From an uncultured Chloroflexia bacterium (GTDB lineage Bacteria > Chloroflexota > Dehalococcoidia > UBA2979): DNA of 64,000 bases. Numbering within the stretch: the stretch's first letter is position 1; each line of letters opens with the position of its first letter. The stretch covers positions 1 through 64,000 of the forward strand of contig CAVSIV010000006.1 of assembly GCA_963728205.1 (NCBI GenBank), in the 5' to 3' direction. The translations under genes were made by a program, and so were the position numbers. The notes below the pieces were generated by a model that searched no databases, had not been told where the DNA came from, and saw only the letters and a list, made by a program, of their open reading frames with translations. Of this stretch, positions 19,350-53,870 are shown piece after piece.

Positions 19350-20297
19350 CTACGCCGTGACCGAGGCCTCCGGCCGCAGTGCCCAGCGCCGGGCGTCGAC
19401 GCCCGGGCGGCGCATCGCGTAGCCGAACCGACGGGTGCGCGCGTCGAACATCGCCTCGAGCGCTCGCAGGTACGGCGCACCGAGGGGGGATCGACGCCGC
19501 CGCTGCCAGCGATCGAAGTAGCGGTCGTTGTACGCGGGATCCAGCTGCGACGGCTCCAGCGGCCGGGACAGCGCGAGGAACTCGGACACCGTCGCGGCCA
19601 CCCCCGCCGGATCGCCCACGAGCGACTCGTACGGCAGCACCAGCAGGCGCCGAATGTGCGGCGCGTCTGCGTCGAGCAGCGCATGCGCGCGCACCCAGTG
19701 CCGCAGGAGGGCGTGCAGCGACGTCCGCGACCACTTCTGCGTCGCGAGCGAGACCGCGATGGGATGCCGGATGACCACGATGAACGACGCCTCCGGGAAC
19801 AGCGCCTGCAGGAAGCGCGTGCGCACGATGTTCTCGGGCGTCTTCTCGACCAGCACCGGCCGCTCGAGGTCCCAGTACGGCCCCCAGCTCCCGAGCAGGC
19901 GCTCGGCGTTCGCCGGCGAGACCAGCGGCGAGTGTTCCGTGAAGTGGGCCGCCGGGTCGAAGGCAAAGCGGCCGGGTGACTTTGCCCAGTCGCTCCCCGC
20001 CCGCCCCGGGAGCCGCTGGAACCAGCCGTACCGCGCGGGCAGGCCCGTCCAGTCGGCCCAGGGGTAGAGGCGCACGTGCCGCGGATCCAGCGCCGGGTAG
20101 ACCGACTGCAGGAACTGGCCCTCGTCCTCGGTGACGCCCGTCTGCGCGAAGCCGCTCACGTCCGGGTGCCCGGCGAGCCATTGCGCGAACCTGGTGGTCC
20201 CGCTCCGGTGCAGGCCGCCGACGAACACAAGCCGGTGCGTCGGCGCGGGCACCACCGAGCCGGCGTCGAGACGCTCCCGCGGGCTACTCGCAGACAT
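19350..20297 (-). CDS. PAPS-dependent sulfotransferase
   Basis: FVGGLHRSGTT (5'-PSB loop), EKTP, IRHPIAVSLA, YESLV. Confidence 0.9.
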   Translation of the reverse strand: MSASSPRERLDAGSVVPAPTHRLVFVGGLHRSGTTRFAQWLAGHPDVSGFAQTGVTEDEGQFLQSVYPALDPRHVRLYPWADWTGLPARYGWFQRLPGRAGSDWAKSPGRFAFDPAAHFTEHSPLVSPANAERLLGSWGPYWDLERPVLVEKTPENIVRTRFLQALFPEASFIVVIRHPIAVSLATQKWSRTSLHALLRHWVRAHALLDADAPHIRRLLVLPYESLVGDPAGVAATVSEFLALSRPLEPSQLDPAYNDRYFDRWQRRRRSPLGAPYLRALEAMFDARTRRFGYAMRRPGVDARRWALRPEASVTA

Positions 20298-21549
20298 CGA
20301 GCATCATCCCCGCCGCCACGGTGTTGTTCGTCACCTCGTCGATGAGGATGAAGCTCCCGGTGCGGCGGTTCCGCGCGTACGGGTCGAACACAAGCGGCGT
20401 CATCGTCCGGATGCCGACCCGCCCGATCTCGTTGACCGCGAGCTGCGAGGCGCCGACCTCGTCCTGCAGCGTGTTCACGTCGAGGCGCGTGTCGATGCGA
20501 TCGACGACCGCGCGCGTCGTGCGCGTCGTGTGCTTGAGCACCAGGCGCGTCCCCGGCGTCAGCGGACGCCCCTCGGCCATCCAGCAGATGGTCGCGGACA
20601 GGTCGCGCGAGACGTACGGCCCGCGGCCGACGCCCACGATCATGTCGCCGCGCGAGGCGTCGACGTCGTCCGCGAGCCGCAGCGTGACCGCCATCGGCGG
20701 AGCGGCCAGCGACTGGGGGCCGTCGTAGGTGTCGACTGCGGCGATGCGCGTGGTGACGCCGGACGGCAGCACGCGCACGGGGTCGCCCGGCCGGAAGATG
20801 CCGCCGGCGACCGTGCCGGCGCAACCGCGGTAGTCGCTCCCGTCTTCGCGCTGCGGGCGGATCACGTACTGCACCGGGAAGCGCGCGTCGTCCAGGTTCT
20901 CGTCGAGCCCCGGCGCGACCTCCTCCAGGGATGAGAGCAGCGGCTCGCCGTCGTACCAGGGCATGCGCTCCGAGCGCGTGACCACGTTGTCGCCGAGCAG
21001 CGCGGAGATCGGGATGAACGTCGCGCGCGGACCGCGCAGCCGGTCGACGAACGTCGAGAACTCGTCGCGGATCGACTCGAACACGTCCTGGTCGAAGCCG
21101 ACGAGGTCCATCTTGTTCACGCAGATCACGAGGTGCGGGATGCCGAGCAGCGCGGCGATCGTCGCGTGGCGGCGCGACTGCTCGAGCGGCCCGTGGCGCG
21201 CGTCGACGAGGATCAGCGCGAGGTGCGCGGTCGAGGCGCCCGTCACCATGTTGCGGGTGTACTGGACGTGCCCCGGGGTGTCGGCGATCACGAACTTGCG
21301 GCGCGCGGTCGCGAAGTAGCGATAGGCGACGTCGATGGTGATGTGCTGCTCGCGCTCCGCGCGCAGGCCGTCGGTCACGAGCGCCAGGTTCACGAACTGG
21401 TCGCCGCGCGCGAGGCTCGAGCGCTCGACCGCCTCCCAGGTGTCCTGCAGCAGCGTCTTTGAGTCGTAGAGCAGGCGGCCGATCAGCGTGCTCTTGCCGT
21501 CGTCGACCGAGCCGATGGTGACCAGTCGCAGCAGGTCCGTGTCATCCAT
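20284..21549 (-). CDS. cysN: Sulfate adenylyltransferase subunit 1
   Basis: GSVDDGKSTLIGRLL, ITIDVAYRYF, DTPGH, NKMD. Confidence 0.95.
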   Translation of the reverse strand: MDDTDLLRLVTIGSVDDGKSTLIGRLLYDSKTLLQDTWEAVERSSLARGDQFVNLALVTDGLRAEREQHITIDVAYRYFATARRKFVIADTPGHVQYTRNMVTGASTAHLALILVDARHGPLEQSRRHATIAALLGIPHLVICVNKMDLVGFDQDVFESIRDEFSTFVDRLRGPRATFIPISALLGDNVVTRSERMPWYDGEPLLSSLEEVAPGLDENLDDARFPVQYVIRPQREDGSDYRGCAGTVAGGIFRPGDPVRVLPSGVTTRIAAVDTYDGPQSLAAPPMAVTLRLADDVDASRGDMIVGVGRGPYVSRDLSATICWMAEGRPLTPGTRLVLKHTTRTTRAVVDRIDTRLDVNTLQDEVGASQLAVNEIGRVGIRTMTPLVFDPYARNRRTGSFILIDEVTNNTVAAGMMLDVCE

Positions 21550-22478
21550 CAGAAGTAGCCCTCTCGCTTGCGGTCCTCCATGGCGGCCTCGGAGAAGCGG
21601 TCGTCGGCGCGGGTCTGCCCGCGCTCGGAGATCCGGGTGACGGCGATCTCGGCGATCACCTGTTCGGGCGTCATCGCCTCCGACTCGACGGCGGCGGTGC
21701 ACGTCATGTCGCCGACGGTGCGGAAGCGCACGCTCGTCTCGAAGGGCTCCTCGCCGGGAAGGCGCGCGAGATAGGGGCTGTCGGCCATCAGCATGCCGTC
21801 GCGCAGGAACACGCGGCGCCGGTGCCCGAAGTAGATCGTCGGCAGCGCGATGCCCTCGCGCGCGACGTACTGCCAGACGTCGAGCTCCGTCCAGTTCGAG
21901 AGCGGGAAGACGCGGATGTGCTCGCCGGGGCGCCGGCGGCCGTTGTAGAGGTTCCACAGCTCGGGCCGCTGGTTGCGCGGATCCCACTGCCCGAACTCGT
22001 CGCGGAAGGAGAACACGCGCTCCTTCGCGCGCGCCTTCTCCTCGTCGCGCCGCGCGCCGCCGAACACGGCGTCGAAGCGATGCTCCGCGATCGTGTCGAG
22101 CAGCACCTGCGTCTGCAGCCGGTTGCGCGACGCCCGCGGGCCGGTCTCGTCGACCGCGCGTCCCTCGTCGATGGCCTGCTGCACCGAGCCCACGACGAGC
22201 CGGACGCCCAGCTCCGCCGCGCGCCGGTCTCGGAACTCGAGGGCCTCCGGGAAGTTGTGTCCCGTGTCGATGTGCACGACCGGGAACGGCACGGGCGCCG
22301 GCCAGAACGCCTTCACCGCGAGGTGCAGCATGACCGCGGAGTCCTTGCCGCCGGAGAACAGCACCGCCGGGCGCTCGAAGTCGGCCGCGACCTCGCGAAT
22401 GATGTGAATCGACTCCGCCTCGAGCGCGCTGATGTGCGAGAGCACGGGCGCACAGGCCTGTGGTGCGCGAGCAGTCAT
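21549..22478 (-). CDS. cysD: Sulfate adenylyltransferase subunit 2
   Basis: LEAESIHIIREV, FSGGKDS, GGARRDEEKARAKER, MEDRKREGYF. Confidence 0.97.
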   Translation of the reverse strand: MTARAPQACAPVLSHISALEAESIHIIREVAADFERPAVLFSGGKDSAVMLHLAVKAFWPAPVPFPVVHIDTGHNFPEALEFRDRRAAELGVRLVVGSVQQAIDEGRAVDETGPRASRNRLQTQVLLDTIAEHRFDAVFGGARRDEEKARAKERVFSFRDEFGQWDPRNQRPELWNLYNGRRRPGEHIRVFPLSNWTELDVWQYVAREGIALPTIYFGHRRRVFLRDGMLMADSPYLARLPGEEPFETSVRFRTVGDMTCTAAVESEAMTPEQVIAEIAVTRISERGQTRADDRFSEAAMEDRKREGYF

Positions 22479-23042
22479 CCTCGCCCCCGTCCGTCGGCGC
22501 ATCGCGGCATGGAGAGAGCCGTCGACCCTGCCGGCCGACCACGCGGGGCACACGACCCGCGTCGGCCGGCCGGCATGGTCGTCTGCTCGTGCGGGTCGAG
22601 GGAACGGGCGAGGCGGAGCTCGTCCAGGCACATCCGGCCCCGATGAGTCGCCACCGCCGGGCATGCTCTGACCGTTTGCCGTTGCGGGTAGAGGCTGCCC
22701 GAATGTCCCATTGCCGTCTCCTTGACCATCGCGCGCGTCGCCCCCGGGCCATGCGAAGGCCCGGCTGACTGGTGCATGGATACCGAAGGGTTGTTGAACG
22801 ACGGTTGAGCGCTGCTGGGGAGACCGCCGCCGGAGCCGCCGCTCTCGATGCGCAACGAGCCCCACCCCGGACGGGAACCCTCGCGGCCGCGGGCCCCCCG
22901 CGATCGCCGTCGCGCGCCCGCCGGCGCGGTGCCGGCACGGTCGCTCCACCGGCCCTCCACGACCGTTGCCTATTCCATCCCACACGGCGGCATGGCGATG
23001 GCCGGCGCGCGCGAAGGCGGCCGGCAAGAACCGGGGTGGCCG

Positions 23043-23348
23043 GTGAGCGACGCGACGCCCGAGCGCTGCCCCCGGCACTGCGCGATCGCCCCGCACGTCG
23101 CCGCACAACGAATCGGGGACGAGACCATCCTGCTGAACCTGGACTCCGGTGTGTACTACTCGCTCAACGCGGTCGCTTCGACGATCTGGCGCCACCTCGA
23201 GCACGGCCTCGGCCGCGACGAGATCACGCGAGCGCTCACCGACGAGTACCAGGTGGGCTCGACACGCGCGGCCCTCGACGCGGAGGCGTTCATGCGCGAT
23301 GCGCTGGACTGCGCGCTGCTCGTGCCTCGACCGGAGCCCGCGCCGTGA
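23043..23348 (+). CDS. PqqD-family RiPP recognition element
   Basis: DETILLNLDSGVYYSLNAVASTIW...EYQV; start uncertain (GTG 23043). Confidence 0.85.
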   Translation: MSDATPERCPRHCAIAPHVAAQRIGDETILLNLDSGVYYSLNAVASTIWRHLEHGLGRDEITRALTDEYQVGSTRAALDAEAFMRDALDCALLVPRPEPAP

Positions 23349-23580
23349 GGCGGCCGCCCGATGTCGCTTCGGCAGCCGCGGTGTGGCCGGCCCGGTCGCG
23401 GTGCGTCACGGAGACGGGTGGCCGCGCCTGCGCGACGCGGGCGCGTCGCGCTCGACGTCGTCGCACGTGTGACGACGGGGGAGGCGTGAGCGCACGCGGC
23501 CACCCGTCGCCGATCCGGCCGGGACCGTCCAGCAAGGTGCGTCGCGACCGGCGGCGCATCGACATCGACCGGGGGACACG

Positions 23581-24708
23581 ATGAGCTCACCGACGGCGCA
23601 GTGGTTGCGGCGCGCAGTCGCCGGCGAACGGCCGCAGTGCGCGCCCGGACTGATCGAGGACCTGCCCGGCCTCGACGCGATCGCGCTGGCGCGGCTCGCG
23701 ATGGAGCACGGCGTCGCGCCCTGGGCGCTCGCCGCGCTGGACGGTCGCGGCGACGCGGAGCGGCTGGCGCCGCTGCGCGCGCTGGCCGTCGCCGACACCG
23801 CCCGCAGCATGGGCGCGCTGCGCGCCATGCACGAAGTCGTGCCTCAGCTGCGCGCACGCGGGATCGACGCGATCGTGCTGAAGGGCCCGCACATCGCGTA
23901 CGGGATCTACCCGGCGCCGCAGCTGCGTCCATACCGCGACCTCGACCTCCTGCTGCACGCGTGCGACCTCGAACGGGCCGGCGCGATGCTCGAGGCGGAC
24001 GGCTACCACGCGACGGGCGAGCACGCCGGACACGGCCACGGCCACGAGGGGCACGCCGAGGGCGAGCGCGGGTTCTTCCACCGCGAGCGGCTGTCGCGCG
24101 TCGAGCTGCACGGCGACCACCTGCAGCTCGGCCTGGCCCCGGCCAGCGCCGACGATCTGTGGTCGCGCGCGACCGAGATCCGGGTCGGCGGGGAGCGCGT
24201 GCCCGTGCTCGACGAGCACGACCTGTTCGTGCACCTGTGCGTCCACCTGCACCGCCACGGCTTCTCGCGCCTGATCTGGTTCAAGGACCTCGAGCTCCTC
24301 GCCACCTCCGGGCGGCTGGACTGGACACGGGTCGCCGAGCGCGCGGAGTCCGACGGCGTGCTCGGGAGCGTGACGCTGAGCCTGGCGCTGGTCGAGGCGT
24401 TGATCGGCCGCTCGCTCGGGGCCGGTCCGGCCTGGCTGCGCGGCCGTGAGCACATCGGCGACGCGCTGGCTCGGCGGTTCATCTGGCGCCCGGAGTCGGT
24501 GCTGGCGCTCGAGCACCCCGATCGGAACCGGCTGCGCCGCATGATCCAGTTCGCGCCGGAGGAAGGGTTGCTGCGCGGGGCGCTCCCCTCGCTGCTGTTC
24601 GCCGGCCGGCGCGCGTCGAAGCTGCGCGTGCTCCTCGGCGGTCTCGCGCGACGGCAGCCCCGGATCGGCGAGGTCCCGCGGGCGCCCGCCGGCACGGATC
24701 GCACGTGA
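23581..24708 (+). CDS. Nucleotidyltransferase family protein (NTP_transf_5 type, lasso-cluster associated)
   Basis: IVLKG...Y.....R...DLDLL, VELH, H..RHGF.RLIWF.DL. Confidence 0.85.
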   Translation: MSSPTAQWLRRAVAGERPQCAPGLIEDLPGLDAIALARLAMEHGVAPWALAALDGRGDAERLAPLRALAVADTARSMGALRAMHEVVPQLRARGIDAIVLKGPHIAYGIYPAPQLRPYRDLDLLLHACDLERAGAMLEADGYHATGEHAGHGHGHEGHAEGERGFFHRERLSRVELHGDHLQLGLAPASADDLWSRATEIRVGGERVPVLDEHDLFVHLCVHLHRHGFSRLIWFKDLELLATSGRLDWTRVAERAESDGVLGSVTLSLALVEALIGRSLGAGPAWLRGREHIGDALARRFIWRPESVLALEHPDRNRLRRMIQFAPEEGLLRGALPSLLFAGRRASKLRVLLGGLARRQPRIGEVPRAPAGTDRT

Positions 24709-25325
24709 CGCCGGCCGCCAACGCGCCGCCGGCGCTCGCGCTGGGCGCGGGTGCGTCCGTCCTCTGCTTCGCCGTCGCCCTGCTCGTGCTGCACATCGCG
24801 CGACGCGACCTCGCGCCCGCGTCGCACTACGTCAGCGAGTACGCGCGCGGCCGGCTCGGCTGGCTGCTGACGTCGTCCTTCCTCGTCCTCGGCACGGGGT
24901 CACTGCTCCTCTGCGCCGCGCTGCTCGACGCGCGCCGCCCCGGACCCGCGGCCGCGATCGTCGCGCCGCCGCTGGCGGCATGGGGAATCGCCATCGCCGG
25001 CGCCGGCGTCTTTCGGACGCAGCCCCGAGGGGCGCCGCGCGACCGGTCCGCGATCGCGCATCAGCGCGCGGCGGGGGTCGCGTTCGGCGCGATCCTGCTC
25101 GCCATGTGGATGCTCGTCGTCGCGGCGCGCGCCGACGCGTGGGGGGCGCTGCGCTGGCCCGCGCTCGTCGCCGCCGTCGCGGCCACGACGAGCTACCTCG
25201 CGCTGCGTCGCGCCGCCGGGTCCGCGCCGAACCGCGCGGGCGCGGCGCAGCGACTGTACCTGGCGTGCGTCGTCGGCTGGCTGCTGCTGCTTGCCGGTCA
25301 CGCGTGGATCGGGGCCACCGGCTGA
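24705..25325 (+). CDS. DUF998-like membrane protein
   Basis: YVSEYA motif, AGVF, AH, QRL; several TM segments. Confidence 0.75.
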   Translation: MTPAANAPPALALGAGASVLCFAVALLVLHIARRDLAPASHYVSEYARGRLGWLLTSSFLVLGTGSLLLCAALLDARRPGPAAAIVAPPLAAWGIAIAGAGVFRTQPRGAPRDRSAIAHQRAAGVAFGAILLAMWMLVVAARADAWGALRWPALVAAVAATTSYLALRRAAGSAPNRAGAAQRLYLACVVGWLLLLAGHAWIGATG

Positions 25326-25366
25326 TGCCGGGGCGTGGCGCGGTGCGCCGTCTCGCCGTGCGCTCG

Positions 25367-25951
25367 CTACGGCGCCGGCTGCTCCGCGGTCGGACCGGCT
25401 GCGTGGCCGATCGAGTGCGCCGGGACCCCGACCACGGTGTCCCCCGGAGCGACGTCGTGCATCACCACCGCGTTGGCGCCCACCGTCGCGCCGGCGCCGA
25501 CGGTCACCGGGCCGAGCACGCGGCAGCCTGCGGCGAGCGTGACGCCCGACCCGATGCGTGGGAACTGCGGCTCGACGCGCAGCCCGACCGTGATCCCGCC
25601 CTGCAGTGTGACGTCGCTGCCGATCGAGACCGCGTTGACCACCGACCCCACGGTGTGCGGCATGTAGAGACCGGGGCCGATCGGCACGGACGGCGGCAGC
25701 TCGAGCGCATGCAGCGTGACGTTCAACTGGGCGCAGAGCGTCGGCAGTCCCGCGATGCCCCGCACCGACGCCCAGTGCCCGATGCGATGCAACAGCGTCG
25801 CGCGGACGCCGGGGTAGCGCGCGAGCAGCAGTGCCACCCCCAGCGGGCCGACGCCGCGCGTGGCGAACCCGTGACGTTCCCACTGCGCGAGGTCGGCGCG
25901 GAACGGTTCGAGCACGAGCGTCCCGAACCCACGCCATCTCGGGCGATCCAT
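25367..25951 (-). CDS. Serine O-acetyltransferase-like acyltransferase (EPS-associated)
   Basis: IGPGLYMPH, P.IG..V, GANAVV.HDV, VGVPA. Confidence 0.85.
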   Translation of the reverse strand: MDRPRWRGFGTLVLEPFRADLAQWERHGFATRGVGPLGVALLLARYPGVRATLLHRIGHWASVRGIAGLPTLCAQLNVTLHALELPPSVPIGPGLYMPHTVGSVVNAVSIGSDVTLQGGITVGLRVEPQFPRIGSGVTLAAGCRVLGPVTVGAGATVGANAVVMHDVAPGDTVVGVPAHSIGHAAGPTAEQPAP

Positions 25952-26232
25952 GCGACGCACTCCCCGGGGCGCTGTACGCGGTCGGCCCGCACCGGGAGCG
26001 GCTCGCGGATGAGCCGCCGGCGACCGACGTCGTGCGAGCAGCATAGCGTGCCGGCGCCGCGCGGCTCCCGGCGGCGCCGGCCGCGGCCGCGGCCGCCGCG
26101 GCTCGTCGAGCGAATGTGTACCTCCCAACCTGCGGTCAACCAGCGCGCCACCGTTCCGCGAGACGGTAGCCGGGCCACGCGAAACGCCGCCCGCTCCGGG
26201 CGGCGGCCATGCCGGCGCGTCCGCGAGACCCC

Positions 26233-31166: not shown

Positions 31167-31176
31167 TTCCCGCCCC

Positions 31177-44264: not shown

Positions 44265-44953
44265 CGTGAGAGGCTGCCGCGGCACCGAGCGCAGGAGCAG
44301 GCGCGCCATGAGCGCGCCCGCGCCGGCGTGGCGGCGCGGCGGCCACCGCGGCGCGCCCGGCGGCTGCCGCCGCGAGCCGCGAGCGCGCTAGCCCGCCGCA
44401 CTGCGTCGTTTCGCCGGCGGGCCGGGCCGTCACCTCCGCCCGCGCAGATGCACCCCCTCGCCCTCGCCGACGACCCGGCCGCGTTGACACGCCAGCCACC
44501 GCACACGGCGGCTTCGGCGACATCGGCCGGCGGACACCACAGGTATCGATCCGACTCTGCTGCGCGGGGCAGCCCCGGCGGACCTGTGCAGATCTGCATG
44601 CGCGATGCCTGAACCCATCACGCAATGTCTGCCATCGGACATGCCATAAATCTTCGCGCATGTCTTCTCGGAGACATGTCACGCTTCGTGACTGAATCGC
44701 GGTCGAAATTCACCTGACACTTTTTTGTGCTTTCTTCTCGCGACCATTTTGTGCCTCATAGATTGCCGGCAGACCGAACACTACGCTCCGGCCCGCCGTT
44801 CTAGTTCCGACTTGGCGGGGTTGTGTGCTCGTGCTCTCGGACGGTGGGGCGGCAGGGCCTGCATCGCCGCCCAGAGACGTGGACGGGCCGGGGGGCGTTC
44901 CCCAGGCGATCTCGGCGCGTCACGCCTGAGCACCCACGGTGGAAAGGACTTAC

Positions 44954-47710
44954 ATGAACCGGGCTGCCAGAATCGCGCGCATCGCTGCGCCAATCTTCGC
45001 CGCACTCGTCATGGCGGCCTGCGCCCAGGCACACGCCGCACCCACCGCGCAGCCATACCTCGCGACCTTCGACGGAACCCCGTCGGCGCCACTCCCCTTC
45101 GATGCTCCCGGGTTCGACATCTTCAAGCACTCGCGCGACGTCAGCACGTGGAATACGCCGGAGACCATCCTCGGCGCCCACGGGCCGGACTGCGGGAAGC
45201 CCAACGTCGCGGACCTGAACGGCGGCGGCGGACCCGGCGTGCATCCGATCACCACGTATGACGGGCTCGTCTACCAGTGCAGCAACCACGTCATGACCGC
45301 GATGATGGCCGGCGGGTACGGCGCGATCTACCTCACGCCCGACCACCTGCTCGACTTCTCGGGCGGTAGCGCGACTTTCTCGATCGACGTGTCGACGTTG
45401 CGCACCTCGAACCGCGACTGGATCGACTTCTGGTTCAGCCCGTACAGCGGCAACATGGTGTTCCCCTTCGGCACGTTCCTCACCACGGACGGGCAGGGCG
45501 TGCCGCTCGACAACGTGAACGTAGCGATGCCGGTCGACGCACAGCGCTCGGGCCTCTTCACGGCGACGGAGACGGTCAACGGACAGTCGACCACGCTGCC
45601 GATGCACGACAACCGGTCGTGGACCTCGGTGCTGACCGAGTCCTGGATGCAGCGGCAGACGATCCAGGTCGAGCTGAGCCGCACGCACATCAAGGTCTCC
45701 ATGCCTGCGTTCGGCCTCGTCTGGGTCGACGCCGACTTCGCCACGCCGCTGCCGTTCGACCAGGCCGTCGTGCAGTTCGGGCATCACTCGTACAACCCGC
45801 AGAAGGCTGACTCGTGCGGGACCAACTGCGAGCCCGACACGTGGCACTGGGACAACGTGTCCCTCTCCCCGGCCGTGCCGTTCACGATGATCAAGGGCGA
45901 CCAGCGGCAGGTGGTCGAGGTCGGCCCGTCGCAGTCGAACGATTACTGCATCCCGTCGTGCCCGGGCAACGCCGTCGTGCACTTCGCGAGCCCGGCTCCG
46001 GCCGGCGCGATGTTGCGCTTCGCGGGCGTCGGGCAGATCGAGTTCAGTACGGACGGCTCGACGTGGACCACGCCGACGGTGGTGCCGGGCACTGCGCAGG
46101 GCGCGCATCCGGAGCACGACAGCTCATACTTCACGCCGATCCCCGCGGGGACGACCCAGGTCGAGTTCCGATTCGCGCAGGGCGCGATCGCCGACCAGCG
46201 CGTCGAGGACATCTCGATCTGGTCGCAGTCGACGCCGTCCGGGCGGACGATCGGTGCGACGGGCCCGGCCGTGCCGCCCGCGACGGCGCCGGCGACGGCG
46301 GTGCCGACGCCGCAGCCCACGGCCATGCCCGCCTCGACCCCGACATCGGTGCCGATCTCCGCCGCCGGCTCGCCGCCGGCGTCTCCGTCGGGAGGCGATT
46401 CCTCACCGGCGACGCCGACCACGTTCAGCAGCACCGCGCGCATGCAGATGGTGGTCTGGAGCGGGAGCACGACCGATCAGCTGGTGTCGGCCGCATCGGC
46501 CGCCGGCGTCACCGCGACGGAGTTCGTGAGCGGGCAGCCGGTCACGCTCGTGCCGGGCGCGCCGACCTTCGTCAACGCTGCCTTCGTGGCTGCGTTCCCG
46601 TCGAACCGCGTGCCGGCCGGCACGATCCTGATCCTGCAGCCGATGTCGGCGTCGATGTCCGGCTCGCCGGCGGCCACCCCGGTGGCGGGCGCGCCGCCGA
46701 CGCCGGCCCCGACCGCGAACCCAACCCCGAAGGCGACACCGACGGCCGCACCGTCGCCGACGCCCGCACCGACGCGATCGGCGGGACGGGGGGCGTCGAC
46801 GCTGCTGTCGTGGCAGGGCCGCCAGTGGGATGCCGCGGGGGTCAACGTCCCCTGGCTCCAGTACGGTTGCGACTTCGGCTGCGCCGCGAAGGGCGGCGTG
46901 AGCCGCGCGGATGACACGGCCGCCCTCGACAGCGCCTTCGCACAGGCGGCCGGCGCGGGTGTCCACGTCGTCCGCTGGTGGATGCTGCCGGGCGACCCGT
47001 GGCAGATCAGCCGGGCGTCCGACGGCACGCCGACGGGCATCAACCCCGCGATCTACACGGACATCGACGCGGCGCTCGCGCTCGCGCGGAAGCATGACCT
47101 CTACTACGACTTCGTCCTCTTCTCGGCGCCCGATGCCCTCCCGCAGAGCTGGTTCACCGATCCGAGCCAGCGGGCGGCGCTCGCGAGCGTGCTGGGTCAG
47201 CTGTTCGCCCACTACGCGAACGAGCCCCGGATCATGTCGTGGGAAATCTTCAACGAGCCCGAGTGGGACTACTGGAACAAGGGGTACGCGAAGCAGCCGA
47301 TCATCGACCTGACGCAGGCCATCGTGCAGTCGGTCCACGCGAACTCGCACGCCATGGCGACGGTCGGGTCCGCGATGGTCGACGGGCTGCCGGACTGGGT
47401 CGGCGTTGGTCTCGATTACTACCAGGTCCACTGGTACGACTACATGTCGTCGGGCACCTGGTGCGCGATGTGCTCGAGCACCCAGATGCTGCAGCAGCAG
47501 TACGGGATCGACAGGCCGGTCGTGGTGGGTGAGTTCTACGCCGGACCCGACGTCGATGCGTTGCAGCGGCTGCAGGACTTCGCCTCGAAGGGCTACGCCG
47601 GGGCGTGGGCGTGGTCGCTGTTCCCGGACCACACGTCGGACCACATGGCTGTGGATTTGAACGCGTACCGGCAGTTCACGAGCAGCCAGTCGAACATCGG
47701 ACCGCAGTAG
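44954..47710 (+). CDS. Large lipoprotein: unknown Cys/His-rich N-terminal domain, P/T linkers, C-terminal GH5-like domain
   Basis: Lipobox VMAAC; WEIFNEP and VVGEF; C-terminal domain closely resembles 27982-29181. Confidence 0.8.
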   Translation: MNRAARIARIAAPIFAALVMAACAQAHAAPTAQPYLATFDGTPSAPLPFDAPGFDIFKHSRDVSTWNTPETILGAHGPDCGKPNVADLNGGGGPGVHPITTYDGLVYQCSNHVMTAMMAGGYGAIYLTPDHLLDFSGGSATFSIDVSTLRTSNRDWIDFWFSPYSGNMVFPFGTFLTTDGQGVPLDNVNVAMPVDAQRSGLFTATETVNGQSTTLPMHDNRSWTSVLTESWMQRQTIQVELSRTHIKVSMPAFGLVWVDADFATPLPFDQAVVQFGHHSYNPQKADSCGTNCEPDTWHWDNVSLSPAVPFTMIKGDQRQVVEVGPSQSNDYCIPSCPGNAVVHFASPAPAGAMLRFAGVGQIEFSTDGSTWTTPTVVPGTAQGAHPEHDSSYFTPIPAGTTQVEFRFAQGAIADQRVEDISIWSQSTPSGRTIGATGPAVPPATAPATAVPTPQPTAMPASTPTSVPISAAGSPPASPSGGDSSPATPTTFSSTARMQMVVWSGSTTDQLVSAASAAGVTATEFVSGQPVTLVPGAPTFVNAAFVAAFPSNRVPAGTILILQPMSASMSGSPAATPVAGAPPTPAPTANPTPKATPTAAPSPTPAPTRSAGRGASTLLSWQGRQWDAAGVNVPWLQYGCDFGCAAKGGVSRADDTAALDSAFAQAAGAGVHVVRWWMLPGDPWQISRASDGTPTGINPAIYTDIDAALALARKHDLYYDFVLFSAPDALPQSWFTDPSQRAALASVLGQLFAHYANEPRIMSWEIFNEPEWDYWNKGYAKQPIIDLTQAIVQSVHANSHAMATVGSAMVDGLPDWVGVGLDYYQVHWYDYMSSGTWCAMCSSTQMLQQQYGIDRPVVVGEFYAGPDVDALQRLQDFASKGYAGAWAWSLFPDHTSDHMAVDLNAYRQFTSSQSNIGPQ

Positions 47711-47786: not shown

Positions 47787-47899
47787 GCCGCACCGCCGAC
47801 CGCGCGCCCATCGCCGCACCGCCGCCCGCGCGCCCATCGCCGCACCGCCGCCCGCGCGCCCATCGCCGCACCGCCGACCGCGCGCCCATCGCCGCACCG
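47787..47899. repeat. 26-bp tandem repeat, ~4.3 copies
   Basis: GCCGCACCGCCG(A/C)CCGCGCGCCCATC at 47787, 47813, 47839, 47865; no spacers. Confidence 0.9.
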
Positions 47900-48047
47900 G
47901 CCATCGCCCGCCGCAGCGTCCGCGCCGCCGCCCCCGTCGCGCACCGGTGCTGAATGCCATCGCCCGGCGACTCTATTGCTCAACCTTTGCTGTCACCCCC
48001 GGCCCTAGGTTTCGGCCGTATCCACCCGCGCGAGCGAGGAGACAGCC

Positions 48048-48339
48048 GTGACGCAAGCCAACGAGATCGATGTGCTCGCGACCCGCCTGCCCGGCGAGCA
48101 CGTGGTCGCGAGCGCCGTCGGCGACGTGATGGTGCTGCTCGACCTGCGTTCCGGCACCTACCACACGCTGAACGACCTCGGAACCCTGATCTGGGGCGCA
48201 CTCGAGCGCGGCGCGAACGTCGGCGTCATCGTCGACGAGATTCTGCGCCGCCTACGACGTCCGTCGAGACGAGGCGCTCGTGGACGCGCAGCGGTTCCTG
48301 GCCGAGATCGACGCGGCCGGTCTGGTGCGCCGTCCGTGA
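48048..48339 (+). CDS. Lasso peptide B1 (PqqD/RRE); one extra T at ~48242
   Basis: DVMVLLDLRSGTYHTLNDLGTLIW; shifted frame continues ICAAYDVRRDEALVDAQRFLAEIDAAGLV*. Confidence 0.85.
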
Positions 48340-48785
48340 CGCAACCCAGGTGGACCGCGGCGCAGGACACCCTGGTGGCCGTGGCATGGCTCGCGCAGAC
48401 GACCGTGCTCTTCCGCCTCCGCGGCAGGAAGGCCGTCGCGGCGGCGACGAAGCGGGCCATGAACGTCCGCCCCAGCTCGCAGGCCGAGATCGCCGCGCGC
48501 AAGGCGACGGCCTGGCGCGTCCACCGCGCGGTGCTCCGGGCGAAACGCGCCTGGCCGATGGAGGCGCGGTGCCTGCAGACCGCCCTGACGATGCAGGCCG
48601 TGCTCCGGCACCACGGACTGGACGCGCCCGTGCGCGTCGGCGTCCGCGCCGCGGACGGTGAGCTGCTCGCGCACGCGTGGGTGGAGCTCGACGAGCGCTT
48701 CCGGCTCGACGACAGCGCCGCGCGCCCCGACTTCCAGCTGCTCGTCGCTCGCCGCCCCGCCGCGAGCGCCTCCGAGAGGGCCTAG
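48336..48785 (+). CDS. Lasso peptide B2 leader peptidase (transglutaminase-like)
   Basis: Catalytic RCL and AHAWVE; GTGA overlap with the restored B1 stop. Confidence 0.92.
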   Translation: MTQPRWTAAQDTLVAVAWLAQTTVLFRLRGRKAVAAATKRAMNVRPSSQAEIAARKATAWRVHRAVLRAKRAWPMEARCLQTALTMQAVLRHHGLDAPVRVGVRAADGELLAHAWVELDERFRLDDSAARPDFQLLVARRPAASASERA

Positions 48786-48789
48786 TGCG

Positions 48790-50739
48790 ATGAGCGGCGT
48801 GATGGCCCTGCTCTCGCTCGACGGGCGTCCGCTCTCCGAGGAGCGCGCGCACGCCATGGCGACGGCGATTGCGCACCGCGGCGACGGCGATCCGCGCCTC
48901 TGGCTCGGCCAGGCGGCGACCGCCGGAATCGCCCTCGGGCAGGCCCATCGCCCCACGACGCCCGAGGCCGAGCGCGAGGTGCTGCCCGGCAGCAGCCGGC
49001 ACGGCCAGGATCCGGGTCGCTTCTGGATCGCCTGGGACGGCCGCATCGACAACCGCGATGAGCTCGCCCGGCGCCTCGGGGTCGAAAGCGCGGAGGCGCA
49101 CGACTGGACGGACGCCGACTACGTCCTCGGCGCATACGCACGCTGGGGCAGCGATTGCGCCCCACAGCTCCTCGGCGACTGGGCCATCGTGATCTGGGAC
49201 GGCCTCCACCGCCGGCTCTTCTGCGCGACCGATCCCTCCGGCTCCCGCCAGCTCTACTACCGGGAAGCGTCCGGCATGCTCGCCGTGGGCTCGGAACCGC
49301 TGCAACTCTTCGCCGGGGACGGCGTACCCGCCATCCACCACGAGTACGCGCTGCGCTTCCTCGCGCAGGCCTACCTCGACCCGGCCGAGACCGAGTACGC
49401 CGGCGTGCGCAACCTTCCGGGCGGCACGGCACTGACGGTCGAGTGCGGGCGCCTCGCCACCCACACCTTCTGGCGCTACCCGCGCATCACGCCCCGCCGC
49501 TACCGCCGGCCGGAGGAGTACGTCGACGAGTTCGCGGACACGCTGGCCCGCGCCACCGCTGCGCGGCTGCGCTCGAACCGGCCGCTCGGCGTGTTTCTCA
49601 GCGGCGGGCTCGACTCCTCCTACGTCGCCGCCGTGGCGGCGCAGCAGGGCGCGAACCTCGTCGCGATCAGCAGCTACGCACCGGGCACCGCCTGGGACGA
49701 GCGCGGCTACCAGCTGCAGGTCGTCGAGCACACCGGCATCGCCTACCGCGCGGTCGACATCAGCGACTGCTGGGCCCTCACCCAGCGTTACCTGCCCGTC
49801 GAGACGTTCGACAGCATCCACCACCCGGGACAGTCCGCAATGGTCGTGCGCCTCGGGCGCGCGGCCGCGGACGAGGGCGTCGGCGTCACCCTCGGCGGCG
49901 ACGGCGCGGACGCATGGATGGGCGGGGCATCGACCTACATCGCCGACGCCGTCGTGCGCGCGCGTCCCGGCGAAGCACTCCGGCTCGCGCGCCTCGCCGC
50001 CGGCGCCCGTTCCGCTTCTACGCCGCGCACGCTCGCGCGTCACGCCGCGGCCGGCCTGCTGCCGCCCGCGTGGGTGCGCGCGGTGCGGCGCGCCCGCGGC
50101 CACGACCGCCTCCCGGACGCCCGGCCCGCCATCGTCGAGCCCGCGCGCCTGCGCGCTCCGCACCTCCCCGACGCCGGCACGGCGTGGTCCCCCCGCGCGG
50201 TGCGCCGCCGCGAGTGGGACGCGTGGCGCTGGCAGGGTCCGCAGCACGCGCCCTGGCGGGAACGCCACGCCCTCAGCCCGTACGGCGTCGAGCACCGCGC
50301 GCCCTTCCATGACCTGCGCGTCGTCGAGCTCATGGCGTCGACGCCCGACTGGGTCAAGCGCTTCCGCGGCCGCACGAAGGACGTGCTCCGCGAAGCCGAA
50401 TACCGCGTGCTGCCGCGGGCGATCCCCGATCGGCGGGACAAGGCGCCGTACGACGAGCTCTGGCTCCGCGGCGTGCACGACCGCGAACGCCAGCGCGTCG
50501 CCGACGCGCTGGACGCGGTCACGCGCCTCCCCGGCGTGCGCGCCGACGCGGCGCGCGAGGAGGTTGAGCGGTATCTGGACGCGGCGCACGCCGGGACGCG
50601 TCCCGCCTGGAGGCTGGTCAGCGCCGGCCTCTGGCTTCAATTCGTGGACACCCTGCGTTCGGTTCGGTCCAGTTCGAACGCAGTTGAAACAGGCAGGGTC
50701 GGCTCGCCGGCCCCCGCACCGAAAGAGGGCATCTCATGA
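48790..50739 (+). CDS. Lasso cyclase (asparagine synthetase-like, C protein)
   Basis: DGRIDNRDEL, LSGGLDSS, GGDGAD, RAPFHD; starts MSG rather than the MCG of glutamine-dependent AsnB. Confidence 0.92.
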   Translation: MSGVMALLSLDGRPLSEERAHAMATAIAHRGDGDPRLWLGQAATAGIALGQAHRPTTPEAEREVLPGSSRHGQDPGRFWIAWDGRIDNRDELARRLGVESAEAHDWTDADYVLGAYARWGSDCAPQLLGDWAIVIWDGLHRRLFCATDPSGSRQLYYREASGMLAVGSEPLQLFAGDGVPAIHHEYALRFLAQAYLDPAETEYAGVRNLPGGTALTVECGRLATHTFWRYPRITPRRYRRPEEYVDEFADTLARATAARLRSNRPLGVFLSGGLDSSYVAAVAAQQGANLVAISSYAPGTAWDERGYQLQVVEHTGIAYRAVDISDCWALTQRYLPVETFDSIHHPGQSAMVVRLGRAAADEGVGVTLGGDGADAWMGGASTYIADAVVRARPGEALRLARLAAGARSASTPRTLARHAAAGLLPPAWVRAVRRARGHDRLPDARPAIVEPARLRAPHLPDAGTAWSPRAVRRREWDAWRWQGPQHAPWRERHALSPYGVEHRAPFHDLRVVELMASTPDWVKRFRGRTKDVLREAEYRVLPRAIPDRRDKAPYDELWLRGVHDRERQRVADALDAVTRLPGVRADAAREEVERYLDAAHAGTRPAWRLVSAGLWLQFVDTLRSVRSSSNAVETGRVGSPAPAPKEGIS

Positions 50740-50864
50740 AGAAGACTTACGAGCGCCCGGCGCTGACGACCCGTGGCGACATCCGCGCCATCACCCAGGG
50801 CTCGGGCGCCCTCGGCTTCGATGGCTTTGACAGCACGTGGCTTCAGACGGACGCGGTCTCCTAG
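50736..50864 (+). CDS. Lasso peptide precursor (A), 42 aa
   Basis: MKKTYERPALTTRGDIRAITQ-GSGALGFDGFDSTWLQTDAVS: YxxPxL, Gly-8, Thr-2, Gly1, Asp8; ATGA overlap with cyclase stop, GAGGG RBS. Confidence 0.95.
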   Translation: MKKTYERPALTTRGDIRAITQGSGALGFDGFDSTWLQTDAVS

Positions 50865-50953
50865 GAGCGCGTTCCTGAGCTAGCGCGGCGCGCGGGTGTT
50901 GGACCGACAACTCGCGCGCGGCACGTCAGTCGCAGGGTGTCTGTCTGTTCCTA

Positions 50954-50986
50954 GAGAGGGCGGCGCGGCGGCCGCGTCGCCCTCTC
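50954..50986 (+). terminator. Strong hairpin after the precursor gene (terminator or mRNA stabiliser)
   Basis: GAGAGGGCGGCGCGG-cgg-CCGCGTCGCCCTCTC, 15-bp stem with one G-T pair, no U-tract. Confidence 0.55.
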
Positions 50987-51031
50987 CGTCAGTGATGCAC
51001 ATACGGACGCGACGGTGAGAGGACGGGCCCG

Positions 51032-52060
51032 ATGGCGACGCGAGCACTGCCCCCGCCCGCAAGCGCGTCGCCGCGCCGCGCGGGCGACCGCTACCACGCG
51101 CTCGGCGGCATCGTCGACTCCGACTTCCCGCTCGCTGATCTCGAGCCCGCCCGCGACGCGCCCGCCCTGGCGCCGGCGGCGGTCGTGCGGCGCCACGAGG
51201 GCACGTTCCCTCCGCTCGGCGCGCTCGTGCGCGAGGTGTGCGCCGCCGACGGGCGGCCGCTCCTTCGGCAGCACTCCTCGCCGGCCGGTCTGCAGATGGA
51301 CGTCGCCGGCGTCGGCCGCTTCTGGATCGACCCCGCAGGCATGAACGTGCGCTACCGCCTGGAACGCGGCGCTGCGGCGCTGGACGTCGAGAGCTACCTC
51401 CTCGGCCCGGTGCTGACGGTCGCGGCACAGATGCGCGGCGAGATGATCTTCCACGCCGGCGCGTTCCTGCTGGACGAGGCAGCCGTCGCCTTCACCGCGC
51501 CCTCCGGGGGCGGGAAGTCGACGCTGGCCGCGAGCGTCGCGCACGCGGGCTACCCCCTCCTCTCGGACGACGTGCTCCCGGTGCGCGAGGAACGCGACGC
51601 GCCGATGGCCTCCCCCTACCTCCCGAAGCTGAAGCTGCGCGACGACTCGCTCGCGATGCTGGGCGAGGCGCCGGAGCGGTTCGCGCGCACGCTCACGTTC
51701 CACGACAAGCGGCGCGTCCGCGTCGAAGCGGACGGGCTCGGCCGTCTCGCGACGCGGCCGGTGCCGCTGCGCGCCTTTTACCGGCTGGCGCCGCACCGGC
51801 GCGACGAGCGCGCCGCGACGGTCGACATCCAGCCGCTCGACCCGGCGCAGGCCTGCCTCGTGCTCCACTCCTCCGTCTACACGCCGGAGCTGCTCGCCGG
51901 CGCACGCGCCGGGCGCACGCTCGCCGCCGCCGCGCGGCTGGCGGCTGCCGTCCCCGTGCGGGTGATCTCCTACTACCGCAGCTACGAGCACCTGGCCGCC
52001 GTGCGCGACGCGCTGATCGCCGACGCGCGGTCACTGCTCGCCGAAGGAGCCGCGCGATGA
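51032..52060 (+). CDS. HPr kinase-like lasso peptide kinase
   Basis: IFHA, APSGGGKSTLA (Walker A), LLSDDV. Confidence 0.88.
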   Translation: MATRALPPPASASPRRAGDRYHALGGIVDSDFPLADLEPARDAPALAPAAVVRRHEGTFPPLGALVREVCAADGRPLLRQHSSPAGLQMDVAGVGRFWIDPAGMNVRYRLERGAAALDVESYLLGPVLTVAAQMRGEMIFHAGAFLLDEAAVAFTAPSGGGKSTLAASVAHAGYPLLSDDVLPVREERDAPMASPYLPKLKLRDDSLAMLGEAPERFARTLTFHDKRRVRVEADGLGRLATRPVPLRAFYRLAPHRRDERAATVDIQPLDPAQACLVLHSSVYTPELLAGARAGRTLAAAARLAAAVPVRVISYYRSYEHLAAVRDALIADARSLLAEGAAR

Positions 52061-53076
52061 CGCCTCCGCTGGTGTGCGTCGAAGGGCTGCATCGCGAGTT
52101 CCAGGGACCGCTCGACTGGCGGCGGCTCGCCCGCCTCCGCTGGGAGCGCCGCGGCGAGGCCGCGCCGCTGCGCGGCGTGACCTTCTCGGTCGACGCCGGC
52201 GAATGGCTCGCGATCATCGGCGGCAACGGCGCCGGGAAGACGACCGTCCTCAAGGTCATCGCCGGTCTGCTGCTGCCGAGTTCGGGCCGCGTCGTCGTCG
52301 ACGGGATCGACGTCGTGCGGCACCCGCGGCGCGTGCAGGCGATGGTCGGCTACGCGCTCGCGGACGAGCGTTCGTTCTTCTGGCGCCTCAACCTGCTCGA
52401 CAACCTCGAGTTCTTCGCGACGCTGGTCGGCGTGCCCCGCCGCGAGCGGCGCGCGCGCAGCGAGCACCTGCTGGAGCGACTCGACCTCGCAGCGCACGCC
52501 GAGCGGCCGTTCGCAGCGCTCTCGACGGGCATGAAGCAGCGCCTCACCATCGCGCGCGCGCTGCTCGGTCGCCCGCGGGTGCTGCTGCTCGACGAGCCGA
52601 CCCGGAGCCTCGACGGCGAGCACGCCCGCCAGGTCTGGTCGGTCGTGCGCGACGAGATGCAGGCGACCGGCGGATCCGTGCTGCTCGTGACGCACCAGCT
52701 GGAGGACGCCGTGTCCCAGTGTCACCGGGTCGCGACGCTCCACGACGGCGTGATCGCCCTGGAGTCGACCGCCGACCAGCTGCGCGAGCGCGCGTCCGGG
52801 TCACACGGCCTGATCATCGCCGTGCGCGACCTGCCTCGCCCCATGCTCGCCCGCCTGCGCGACTTCGAGGGTGTGCGCGACATCCGCGTCGCGTCGGAGA
52901 ACGCCGGAGAGCAGGTCCTCGAGGTGTGGACCCGGAACGGGGACCTCCCGCTGGCCGGGTTCATCGGCGAGCTCACCAGCAGCGGCGCCAGCATCGCATC
53001 GCTTCAGCAGGGCATCCCGCTCCAGGCCGTCCTCGAACAACTGCAGGCCGGCGTCCCGCAGGAGGTGCCCGCATGA
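52057..53076 (+). CDS. ABC transporter ATP-binding protein
   Basis: GGNGAGKTT, LSTGMKQR, LLLDEPT, VTH. Confidence 0.95.
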   Translation: MTPPLVCVEGLHREFQGPLDWRRLARLRWERRGEAAPLRGVTFSVDAGEWLAIIGGNGAGKTTVLKVIAGLLLPSSGRVVVDGIDVVRHPRRVQAMVGYALADERSFFWRLNLLDNLEFFATLVGVPRRERRARSEHLLERLDLAAHAERPFAALSTGMKQRLTIARALLGRPRVLLLDEPTRSLDGEHARQVWSVVRDEMQATGGSVLLVTHQLEDAVSQCHRVATLHDGVIALESTADQLRERASGSHGLIIAVRDLPRPMLARLRDFEGVRDIRVASENAGEQVLEVWTRNGDLPLAGFIGELTSSGASIASLQQGIPLQAVLEQLQAGVPQEVPA

Positions 53077-53870
53077 GCATGGCCATGGCCTTCGTCCGGC
53101 GCGACCTCCGGGTGGCGTGGAGCTATCGCTTCAACTTCTTCCTCCAGCACCTCAGCGTGCTGGGCACTCTCGTCACGATGCGCTTCATGGCCGACGTCGT
53201 CGGGTCGAGCAGCGCGTCGCTCGCCCCGTACGGCAGCGACTACTTCTCGTTCGCGCTGATCGGGATGGCGATCCAGCTCATGGCGTTGCCGGCGGCCACC
53301 ACGTTCCGGGACGCCGTGCGCAACGCGCAGCTGACGGGCACCTTCGAGGCGATGCTGGCGACGCGCGGACACCCGGCGCTGATGATCCTCTCGTCCGGGA
53401 TCTACGCGCTCGGCATGATGCTCGTGCGGCTCATCGTGATCGTGCTCGTCGTCGGGATCGTGCTCGGGGCGCACCTGCGGCTCGAGAACCTCGCCGAGGT
53501 CATCCTCGTGCTGGCGATGACGATGGGCGCGTTCTCCGCGTTCGGCCTGCTGTCGACCGCGTTCACGATCGCGACGAAGCAGACCGAGCCGTTCACGATG
53601 CTCATCCTCTCGCTGTCCGGGGTCGTGAGCGGCGTGCTCTACCCGACCAGCGTCCTGCCGCACTGGCTGGCGGCGGTCGCCCCGTTCCTGCCGATGACCC
53701 ACGCGCTCGAGCTCACGCGCGGACTCTTCATCCAGGGGGCGAGTGTCGGCTCGCTCGCCGGCAGCTTCATCGCACTCGCCGCGTTCACCCTGCTGCTTCC
53801 CATCAGCGTGGTCGTGCTGATGGTCGCGGTCACGTGGGCGAAGCGAACGGGCTCGCTCGCGCACTACTAG
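53073..53870 (+). CDS. ABC-2 type transporter permease
   Basis: ~6 TM segments; GTFE, SGVLYP...LP.WL...LP.THAL. Confidence 0.92.
   Translation: MSMAMAFVRRDLRVAWSYRFNFFLQHLSVLGTLVTMRFMADVVGSSSASLAPYGSDYFSFALIGMAIQLMALPAATTFRDAVRNAQLTGTFEAMLATRGHPALMILSSGIYALGMMLVRLIVIVLVVGIVLGAHLRLENLAEVILVLAMTMGAFSAFGLLSTAFTIATKQTEPFTMLILSLSGVVSGVLYPTSVLPHWLAAVAPFLPMTHALELTRGLFIQGASVGSLAGSFIALAAFTLLLPISVVVLMVAVTWAKRTGSLAHY

Follow-up and report, generated by a model that had tools for sequence, protein, structure and literature searches.

The stretch of DNA analyzed here (hereafter, the window) comprises 64,000 nucleotides of contig CAVSIV010000006.1 from an uncultured Chloroflexia bacterium (assembly GCA_963728205.1). 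The base composition of the window is about 72% G+C, and genes were chosen by their third-position GC content and then characterized by domain searches against Pfam and NCBIfam. The window contains a lasso peptide operon that runs from the B1 gene to the exporter (48048-53870; block 2) and a separate three-gene unit (22998-25325; block 1) that encodes PqqD2, a standalone RRE, that is, a recognition element for RiPPs (peptides made by the ribosome and then modified), a nucleotidyltransferase (NTase) and a DUF998 membrane protein. The two blocks are separated by genes of a Wzx/Wzy-type polysaccharide locus, which spans 9.7 to 47.7 kb of the window. An original prediction, made from the letters of the sequence, had placed a second PqqD/RRE (23043) and an NTase (23581) about 25 kb away from the lasso core genes, among Wzx/Wzy genes. 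Both are indeed intact open reading frames (ORFs), with 25.0 kb between 23043 and 48048 and 23.3 kb between the end of the NTase gene (24708) and 48048, and polysaccharide genes are located on both sides of the pair. The lasso operon directly follows the polysaccharide locus, as predicted, starting 338 bp past the last polysaccharide-linked gene (44939-47710).

The lasso operon and the separate RRE-nucleotidyltransferase unit

All genes of block 2 are encoded on the plus strand. The first of these, B1 (48048-48339), encodes the in-operon RRE and is frameshifted as assembled. It is followed by the gene for the transglutaminase-like leader peptidase B2 (48336-48785; PF13471, 65.9 bits; NF033537, 60.5 bits with a cutoff of 33), the GTG start of which overlaps the B1 stop (GTGA). 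Next, ahead of the precursor gene, comes the gene for the asparagine synthetase-like cyclase C (48790-50739), which contains the Pfam domains Asn_synthase and GATase_7 and scores 256 bits with the NCBIfam lasso cyclase model NF033535, under the cutoff of 525. The precursor (50736-50864) is a 42-aa peptide, MKKTYERPALTTRGDIRAITQGSGALGFDGFDSTWLQTDAVS, with the features of a class II lasso precursor, namely, a leader with a YxxPxL motif (YERPAL) and Thr at position -2, and a core that starts at Gly22 (Gly1 of the core) and carries Asp8; the last residue is Ser. The leader is common to all of the 8 related precursors, in which P8, G14 and T20 are invariant; six of these precursors have a C-terminal Ser, and the other two have Ser at position -2.

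The next gene, 167 nt downstream of the precursor, encodes an HprK-like kinase (51032-52060). Taken alone, this protein is weakly HprK-like and misses the cutoffs of the HPr-rel-A models (TIGR04352, 42.8 bits, and TIGR04355, 19 bits, against 200); when a profile of ten members of the kinase family is used as the query, HPr(Ser) kinases top the list of PDB matches (E 8e-7 to 2e-5), and the P-loop is invariant. The operon ends with the genes for the ATPase (52057-53076) and the permease (53073-53870) of an ABC-2 exporter, with no remains of an NTase gene after the permease. The cyclase and precursor genes, the kinase and ATPase genes, and the ATPase and permease genes overlap by ATGA. Directly upstream of the operon, a 26-bp unit is present in 5.5 tandem copies (47787-47930); the unit has four matches with at most three mismatches in the window, all of them inside this array, which may bind a regulator.

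Block 1 is encoded on the plus strand as well. PqqD2 is located within the ORF 22848-23348 and starts either at the GTG at 23043 (23043-23348) or at the ATG at 22998 (22998-23348); the 116-aa form from 22998 is present in the protein collection. It is an intact RRE of the lasso type: the Pfam PqqD match covers the whole profile (positions 1-67 of 67; 50.7 bits, cutoff 23.4), the best NCBIfam match, although under the cutoff, is to the lasso PqqD chaperone, and a profile of PqqD2 and related B1 proteins matches TbiB1 with an E-value of 2.8e-26, compared to 1.1e-11 for LppB. A word-based protein search with PqqD2 retrieved the query alone; an exhaustive search yielded 3067 relatives, the best standalone ones being 45-47% identical and lacking genomic context. 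Among the top matches are three proteins of about 395 aa (P0032, P0033 and P0037), each with three PqqD-like stretches.

The NTase gene (23581-24708), 232 bp downstream of PqqD2, encodes a member of the PF14907 family (NTP_transf_5; 149.6 bits, cutoff 31.2), in which D120 and D122 are invariant across an alignment of 26 relatives. Both PqqD2 and the NTase are uninterrupted ORFs with a third-position GC content of 0.87-0.92. The AlphaFold model of the NTase (pLDDT 88.6, pTM 0.89) has a Pol-beta-type nucleotidyltransferase fold, and a Foldseek search with this model gave seven PDB matches at E<=0.001, all of them of the Pol-beta type (MenT1, LnuA and a fungal protein), followed by ANT(2'')-Ia at E 0.008-0.03 and, weakly, FKRP at E 0.015. 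Comparison of an NTase profile with PDB sequences produced no useful match. The start of the DUF998 gene (24705-25325; Pfam, 87.3 bits) overlaps the NTase stop by 4 nt (GTGA), which points to translational coupling of the two genes, and the unit is closed by a convergent gene for a hexapeptide acetyltransferase (25367-25951, minus strand).

The original prediction found no precursor belonging to the PqqD2-NTase pair. Indeed, a scan of the 16-58 kb range for ORFs of 25-200 aa with [YW]xxPx[LVIFA] within the first 30 residues revealed no convincing second precursor, eight of the nine matches being pieces of larger genes or frames with non-coding-like composition. Genes for a signal peptidase, a kinase or an MsbA-type pump were not detected by Pfam and NCBIfam searches near 19-30 kb. 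Beside PqqD2 and the NTase, vestiges of the genes for B2, cyclase, kinase or ABC proteins were not found either, so that a decayed second operon, which we considered, is unsupported. An Rfam scan of the window gave no match, and comparison of the regions upstream of PqqD2, the lasso operon, wzx and the regulators for shared motifs gave short GC-rich matches only.

The two RREs of the original prediction are both present but they are not equivalent. As assembled, the 48048 ORF encodes a 245-aa protein in which two-thirds of an RRE are joined to B2 by an Arg-rich linker that is read out of frame. The frame of B1 changes after codon 67, such that the first 67 codons belong to the 48048 frame, whereas the remaining 30 (48247-48336) and the stop (48337-48339), which overlaps the B2 start, belong to the next one. 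The codon-position GC departs from the frame of the 48048 ORF at about 48230-48330, and the next frame encodes a typical third helix of an RRE. The Pfam PqqD match of B1 is confined to profile positions 2-42 of 67, in contrast to the complete match of PqqD2. In an alignment with related B1 proteins, the 67-residue piece and the shifted 30-residue piece tile one whole domain, and B1 of the related locus L004 aligns with PqqD2 over the full length, but with the in-operon B1 only as far as the break. In all relatives checked by ORF and Pfam analysis (L004, L016 twice, L017 and L018), B1 and B2 are separate genes. The helix that is lost from B1 holds an Asp-x-x-x-Phe motif that aligns with D70 and F74 of LppB, and the Asn of the YxLN motif aligns with N33. 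In LppB, these three residues are reported to hold the YxxP leader (PMC13381572). In the alignment, PqqD2 has both the Asn and the Asp-x-x-x-Phe in frame at these leader-contacting positions.

Because the shifted piece of B1 still shows a coding-like base composition, the break appears to be either recent or an assembly error. The in-operon B1, as assembled, is not the intact RRE expected of a lasso cluster, and an intact one lies 25 kb away. Given that the frameshift removes the third helix, PqqD2 may be the working RRE of the lasso operon. In the PqqD tree, the in-operon B1, entered as a read-through sequence with X, sits on a long branch (1.57, compared to 0.63 for PqqD2).

The nucleotidyltransferase in related loci

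One profile scan of genome contigs with the 26-sequence NTase alignment yielded 18 related loci (L001-L018), with up to 10 kb of flanking sequence on each side; a split layout like that of the window would thus extend beyond view in the relatives. We compared 31 window proteins with these loci by tblastn (E<=1e-4) and ran Pfam on 98 of the 220 flanking ORFs called in the 18 loci and on 10 more. The closest relatives of the NTase are at most 47% identical to it, and those that are named come from metagenome-assembled genomes (MAGs) of Chloroflexota.

At least one lasso-pathway gene is present in 15 of the 18 loci, the exceptions being L002, L011 and L014, and the cyclase was detected in nine (L003, L004, L006-L009, L012, L016 and L018). 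In seven loci (L001, L003, L004, L006, L008, L010 and L013), the NTase gene directly follows the ABC-2 permease gene on the same strand, as the last gene of the operon. Polysaccharide genes occur in five of the loci, and an RRE directly upstream of the NTase occurs in none.

The lasso operons of four Chloroflexota MAG loci (L003, L004, L006 and L008) share the leader with the window and are 37-57% identical to it in B2, cyclase, precursor, kinase, both ABC-2 proteins and NTase; the cyclases of L003 and L004 are 46% identical to that of the window. Unlike the arrangement in the window, each of these is one uninterrupted operon that ends in the NTase gene, with no sulfation genes and no DUF998. 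In L004, homologues of a pair of regulators encoded at 17305-19171 of the window are located, in the same order and with 37% identity (tblastn), directly upstream of the lasso B1, so that PqqD2 stands where the L004 operon starts.

Phylogenetic analysis places the window NTase with the enzymes of these loci. The NTase tree was built from 21 sequences, the window protein and 20 from the 18 loci, with database relatives that come without genomic context left out; the window sequence falls in a clade with L001-L005 (support 99/98), within a wider clade (99/96) that adds L006, L008 and L010. In the tree of 10 cyclases, including that of the window, the window is the sister of L003 and L004 (100/100), with L006 and L008 next (100/100), a topology that agrees with that of the NTase tree. 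Because the two trees are congruent, the NTase and the cyclase appear to share one history. Considering this congruence together with the operon-terminal position of the gene in the relatives, the NTase at 23581 is most likely the lasso operon's own tailoring gene, relocated 23 kb away, and most likely acts in trans on the lasso peptide. The orthology of the NTase, along with the B1 frameshift and the adjacent sulfation genes, had been overlooked in the original prediction.

Several of the 18 loci depart from this pattern. The L002 contig begins inside the NTase gene, so that the upstream side is out of sight. Its NTase is the one most identical to that of the window among the loci (43-46%), and the contig is labelled Hyphomicrobiales, whereas the other 17 are Chloroflexota MAGs; this label may reflect a binning error or transfer. 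L011 encompasses, at 5312-10969, an HprK-like gene, a radical-SAM gene, PqqD, GNAT and then the NTase, neither a cyclase nor a B2 gene being present in the 10 kb to each side, and may represent a different phosphorylated RiPP. L017 carries B1, B2 and kinase genes, and no cyclase within its 12 kb. In L014, the NTase is surrounded by polysaccharide genes, and lasso genes are absent from the 5.7 kb upstream and the 10 kb downstream of it. Because no cyclase is in reach in L011, L014 and L017, the association of the NTase family with lasso cyclases is not a strict one.

L014 fits an alternative under which PqqD2 and the NTase serve the polysaccharide only or are an inert relic with no lasso role, their neighbourhood being an accident of rearrangement. 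The coupling of the window NTase to DUF998, which tblastn detected in none of the 18 loci, and the length of the NTase branch are also compatible with this scenario. It is, however, hard to reconcile with the integrity of both ORFs, their high third-position GC content and the preservation of the catalytic Asp pair, or with the congruence of the NTase and cyclase trees and the presence of lasso genes beside the NTase in 15 of the 18 loci, and we consider it decidedly unlikely. Moreover, an RRE is not known to have a role in the absence of a peptide, which counts against this alternative as well.

The polysaccharide locus and its recurrence near the nucleotidyltransferase

The upstream part of the polysaccharide locus (9687-16220) consists of sugar-nucleotide genes and a GT4 glycosyltransferase gene. 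It is followed by three regulators (16687-19171), which include, on the plus strand, the OmpR-type response regulator (17305-18420) and the Trans_reg_C regulator (18455-19171), both identified with Pfam. Next, on the minus strand and divergent from block 1, come the genes for a Sulfotransfer_3 sulfotransferase (19350-20297), CysN (20284-21549) and CysD (21549-22478), identified with both Pfam and NCBIfam. Beyond block 1, the main part of the locus (25.4-47.7 kb) includes genes for the flippase Wzx (Polysacc_synt; 26209-27966), a glycoside hydrolase (GH)-like protein (27982-29181), an epimerase (29347-30489, minus strand), a small Bac_transf priming transferase (30498-31238, minus strand; Pfam, 204.9 bits), UDP-glucose dehydrogenase (31177-32562, minus strand), WecG (32559-33749, minus strand), a second epimerase (33575-34780), CysC (34632-35510), a Wzz-like protein (35557-36774) and a tyrosine kinase (36771-37511), this chain-length and kinase pair being covered by partial matches to TIGR03007 and TIGR03018, the polymerase Wzy (Wzy_C; 37681-39213), an acetyltransferase (38823-39818), GT2 and GT4 glycosyltransferases (39811-44264; four glycosyltransferase domains in the main part) and a secreted, 923-aa GH-like protein (44939-47710). 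The locus is thus equipped with all components of a Wzx/Wzy-dependent pathway, that is, a priming transferase, Wzx, Wzy, the chain-length and tyrosine kinase pair, and glycosyltransferases.

With CysD, CysN and CysC, the locus encodes a full supply of 3'-phosphoadenosine 5'-phosphosulfate, along with a single Sulfotransfer_3 enzyme. Because the sulfotransferase, CysN and CysD genes adjoin the locus and CysC lies within its main part, the polysaccharide is probably sulfated. Homologues of the sulfotransferase and of CysD, CysN and CysC were detected by tblastn in none of the 18 related loci. The core of the locus is bracketed by two copies, 74% identical, of a GH-like domain that spans about 315 aa and has an FNEPE motif, one in a membrane-anchored 399-aa protein (27982-29181) and the other at the end of the 923-aa secreted protein (46740-47710); neither copy has a Pfam match. 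The gene at 1-3804 (minus strand), which continues beyond the left edge of the window, encodes a large RHS-repeat protein that contains DUF6531.

Polysaccharide genes recur in the flanks of the NTase in five of the 18 related loci. In L006, the NTase is followed by genes for a GT4 glycosyltransferase, Wzx, a GT2 glycosyltransferase, two more GT4 enzymes, GNAT and an epimerase-aminotransferase. In L012, Bac_transf and WecG adjoin the NTase, in L013, a Wzz-like gene comes after it, and in L014, NTase, WecG and Bac_transf are co-directional and are followed by a GT4 glycosyltransferase and a tyrosine kinase. The most compact arrangement is found in L016 (3306-9336), where WecG, Bac_transf, NTase, a gene for a 356-aa protein without known identity, B1, B2 and the HprK-like kinase are all encoded in the same direction, 33, 34, 90, 196, 7 and 10 nt apart in this order, in an apparent operon; L016 additionally carries a second kinase-B1-B2 set and a second NTase. 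The priming transferase and WecG of the window resemble those of L012, L014 and L016 (48-52% and 36-42% identity, respectively). Outside this set, a Paenibacillus replicon (L019) encodes, in a row, an epimerase, UDP-glucose dehydrogenase, NTase, cyclase, kinase, PqqD and ABC genes. By a rough estimate from the small genome share of such loci, five of 18 is probably above chance, although the loci are not independent of one another. Polysaccharide genes are missing from the downstream flank in seven operon-bearing loci (L003, L004, L007-L010 and L018), and because these carry the operon with unrelated genes downstream, a polysaccharide link is not obligatory.

The original prediction proposed that the phosphorylated lasso peptide is joined to sugars or glycan made by the locus. 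The lasso-pathway role of the NTase stands as most likely, whereas the polysaccharide connection, of which L016 is the strongest case, remains a lead. In its full form, the proposal is that the peptide is joined covalently, via phospho-Ser, to the polysaccharide or to a lipid-linked repeat unit, with the NTase as the coupling enzyme, yielding a peptide-capped or peptide-primed glycan. The polysaccharide locus is bracketed by the lasso pathway's two halves, and the co-directional arrays of L016 and L014, together with the similarity of the priming transferases and WecG proteins, are in line with such a product. LicD and FKRP have a nucleotidyltransferase fold, and the outcome of their reactions is a phosphodiester that links a sugar with another moiety. 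The similarity of the window NTase to these enzymes lies in the Pol-beta-type fold; given the weak structural match (E 0.015, TM 0.22-0.26) and the lack of a sequence family link, it is a lead only, and the coupling of a peptide phosphate to a sugar hydroxyl by the NTase would be an idea by analogy alone. Against the conjugate speak the seven loci with no polysaccharide genes downstream of the operon, the presence in the operon of an ABC-2 exporter of its own, as would befit a free peptide, and the lack of a ligase-type gene tied to the peptide; furthermore, PsmN, the NTase of the pseudomycoidin pathway, works in Escherichia coli with one or two hexoses only (PMC6993621). On balance, this alternative seems unlikely, and a covalent peptide-polysaccharide product is a speculation. 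An equally doubtful, more explicit version would make the phospho-Ser lasso a cell-surface building block, displayed on the sulfated polysaccharide via a phosphodiester: the NTase might activate the peptide phosphate or couple it to the lipid-linked sugar of Bac_transf and WecG, the standalone RRE might be an adaptor that delivers the peptide to machinery on the membrane side (NTase and DUF998), and the L016 operon might represent this system in a compact form.

Known systems and the proposed pathway

In the biosynthesis of pseudomycoidin, hexose is added to phospho-Ser, PsmN is required for this modification, and one or two hexoses are attached in E. coli (PMC6993621), in agreement with the statement of the original prediction that PsmN is linked to glycosylation of the phosphorylated C-terminal Ser. 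PsmN itself requires two Asp residues, and its fold was reported to resemble ANT(2'')-Ia (PMC6993621); an Asp pair (D120 and D122) and an ANT(2'')-Ia-like fold are found in the window NTase as well. Judging from the model, the NTase fits a PsmN-type enzyme, with the exact chemistry left unfixed. The pseudomycoidin cluster of Bacillus pseudomycoides, psmCAKB1B2ND, shares with the window the cyclase, the precursor with a C-terminal Ser, the HprK-like kinase, the split B1 and B2, an NTP transferase of an uncharacterised family and an exporter. The window differs by belonging to another phylum, by the gene order, by the ABC-2 pump and by the location of the NTase, 23 kb away beside an extra RRE. 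In the paeninodin-like clusters, sulfotransferase and NTase genes flank the core, and fusions of the NTase to B2 occur in some cases (PMC8498205). An NTase-type region is present in a Deinococcus plasmid protein that carries a B2 annotation.

A 2026 study described paeninodin-like lasso clusters and clusters for linear polyphosphorylated peptides (LPP) inside capsule loci of Bacilli, with a discrete RRE and NTase of the LPP clusters next to the lasso clusters; the two clades it describes are restricted to Bacillota (PMC13381572). That report states that the native products were not found by mass spectrometry and suggests that polysaccharide genes may modify them, which lends some credence to the conjugate considered above; accordingly, the idea of a peptide-polysaccharide link is already in print, the same possibility having been raised for Bacilli. 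The window has in common with these clusters two RREs, an HprK-like kinase, an NTase and a lasso cluster inside a polysaccharide locus, but lacks a signal peptidase, a second kinase, an MsbA-type pump and a second precursor; furthermore, the leader has Tyr rather than Trp, and the in-operon RRE is, in the assembled sequence, disrupted. We considered assigning PqqD2 and the NTase to the LPP group and rejected this assignment: there is no archaeal-type signal peptidase I, kinase, MsbA-like pump or precursor with YxxPxVLxHQ beside them. In the available literature on Chloroflexi lasso peptides and on lasso peptides in connection with polysaccharide biosynthesis and phosphorylation, we found no description of the Chloroflexota operon family or of the split layout, and no report linking PF14907 with lasso peptides was found.

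The Bacilli clusters nevertheless raise the possibility that PqqD2 and the NTase form a separate or remnant LPP-like RiPP system with a precursor of its own that escaped recognition. The pairing of a discrete RRE with an NTase near lasso clusters in capsule loci would be accounted for, as would the kinase-RRE-NTase sets of L011 and L017, with the cyclase out of reach, and the fact that PqqD2 is no recent copy of B1. This scenario, however, implies genes that are missing near 19-30 kb (signal peptidase, kinase and MsbA-type pump) and a second leader-bearing ORF that is absent from the 16-58 kb range. Moreover, the profile of PqqD2 and B1 proteins is far closer to TbiB1 than to LppB, and the NTase clusters in the tree with operon-terminal lasso enzymes. 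We regard it as very unlikely.

The explanation that we favour, with a probability of about 0.65, is that the two blocks belong to one phosphorylated-lasso-peptide pathway that is split by a Wzx/Wzy-type, probably sulfated, polysaccharide locus. The YxxPxL leader would be bound by an RRE, presumably PqqD2, which would be the sole one available if the frameshift is real; the kinase would phosphorylate the C-terminal Ser, by analogy with paeninodin and pseudomycoidin; and, as is typical of the family, B2 would remove the leader and the cyclase would join Gly1 to Asp8. The NTase would then, like PsmN, attach a sugar-type group to this phosphate, from donors that are possibly made by the surrounding polysaccharide locus, and the ABC-2 pump would export the product.

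A number of observations weigh against this explanation. The B1 frameshift may be an assembly error. PqqD2 is 29% identical to the N-terminal piece of B1 (19 of 66 aligned positions), and the PqqD tree leaves 10 of its 17 inner branches open and does not decide which protein is the orthologue of the B1 of the relatives. No RRE gene is located immediately upstream of the NTase in any of the 18 related loci, so that its pairing with PqqD2 lacks a precedent among them, and a promoter and terminator scan of 22300-26300 found nothing, the 232-bp gap between PqqD2 and the NTase included. The end branch of the NTase is long (1.03 against a median of 0.46), and the searches with this protein reached no Bacillus protein, so that the comparison to PsmN rests on the Pfam family, the operon position and the fold. 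Three loci have no cyclase in reach, and one of them, L014, shows polysaccharide genes only. Finally, LppN was inactive in a heterologous host (PMC13381572).

The window shows that an association of lasso peptide genes with polysaccharide loci, of the type known in Bacilli, is found in a distant phylum. The presence of a probable tailoring NTase and an intact RRE apart from a core operon, the own RRE of which may be dead, amounts to a natural experiment on the exchange of RREs between loci. The window and the L016 operon offer defined sets of genes with which to examine whether ribosomal peptides ever become attached to a polysaccharide. If the conservative interpretation alone holds, the window is one more representative of an established lasso subtype, its split arrangement being unusual; if the conjugate exists, it would be a ribosomal peptide-glycan conjugate at the cell surface.

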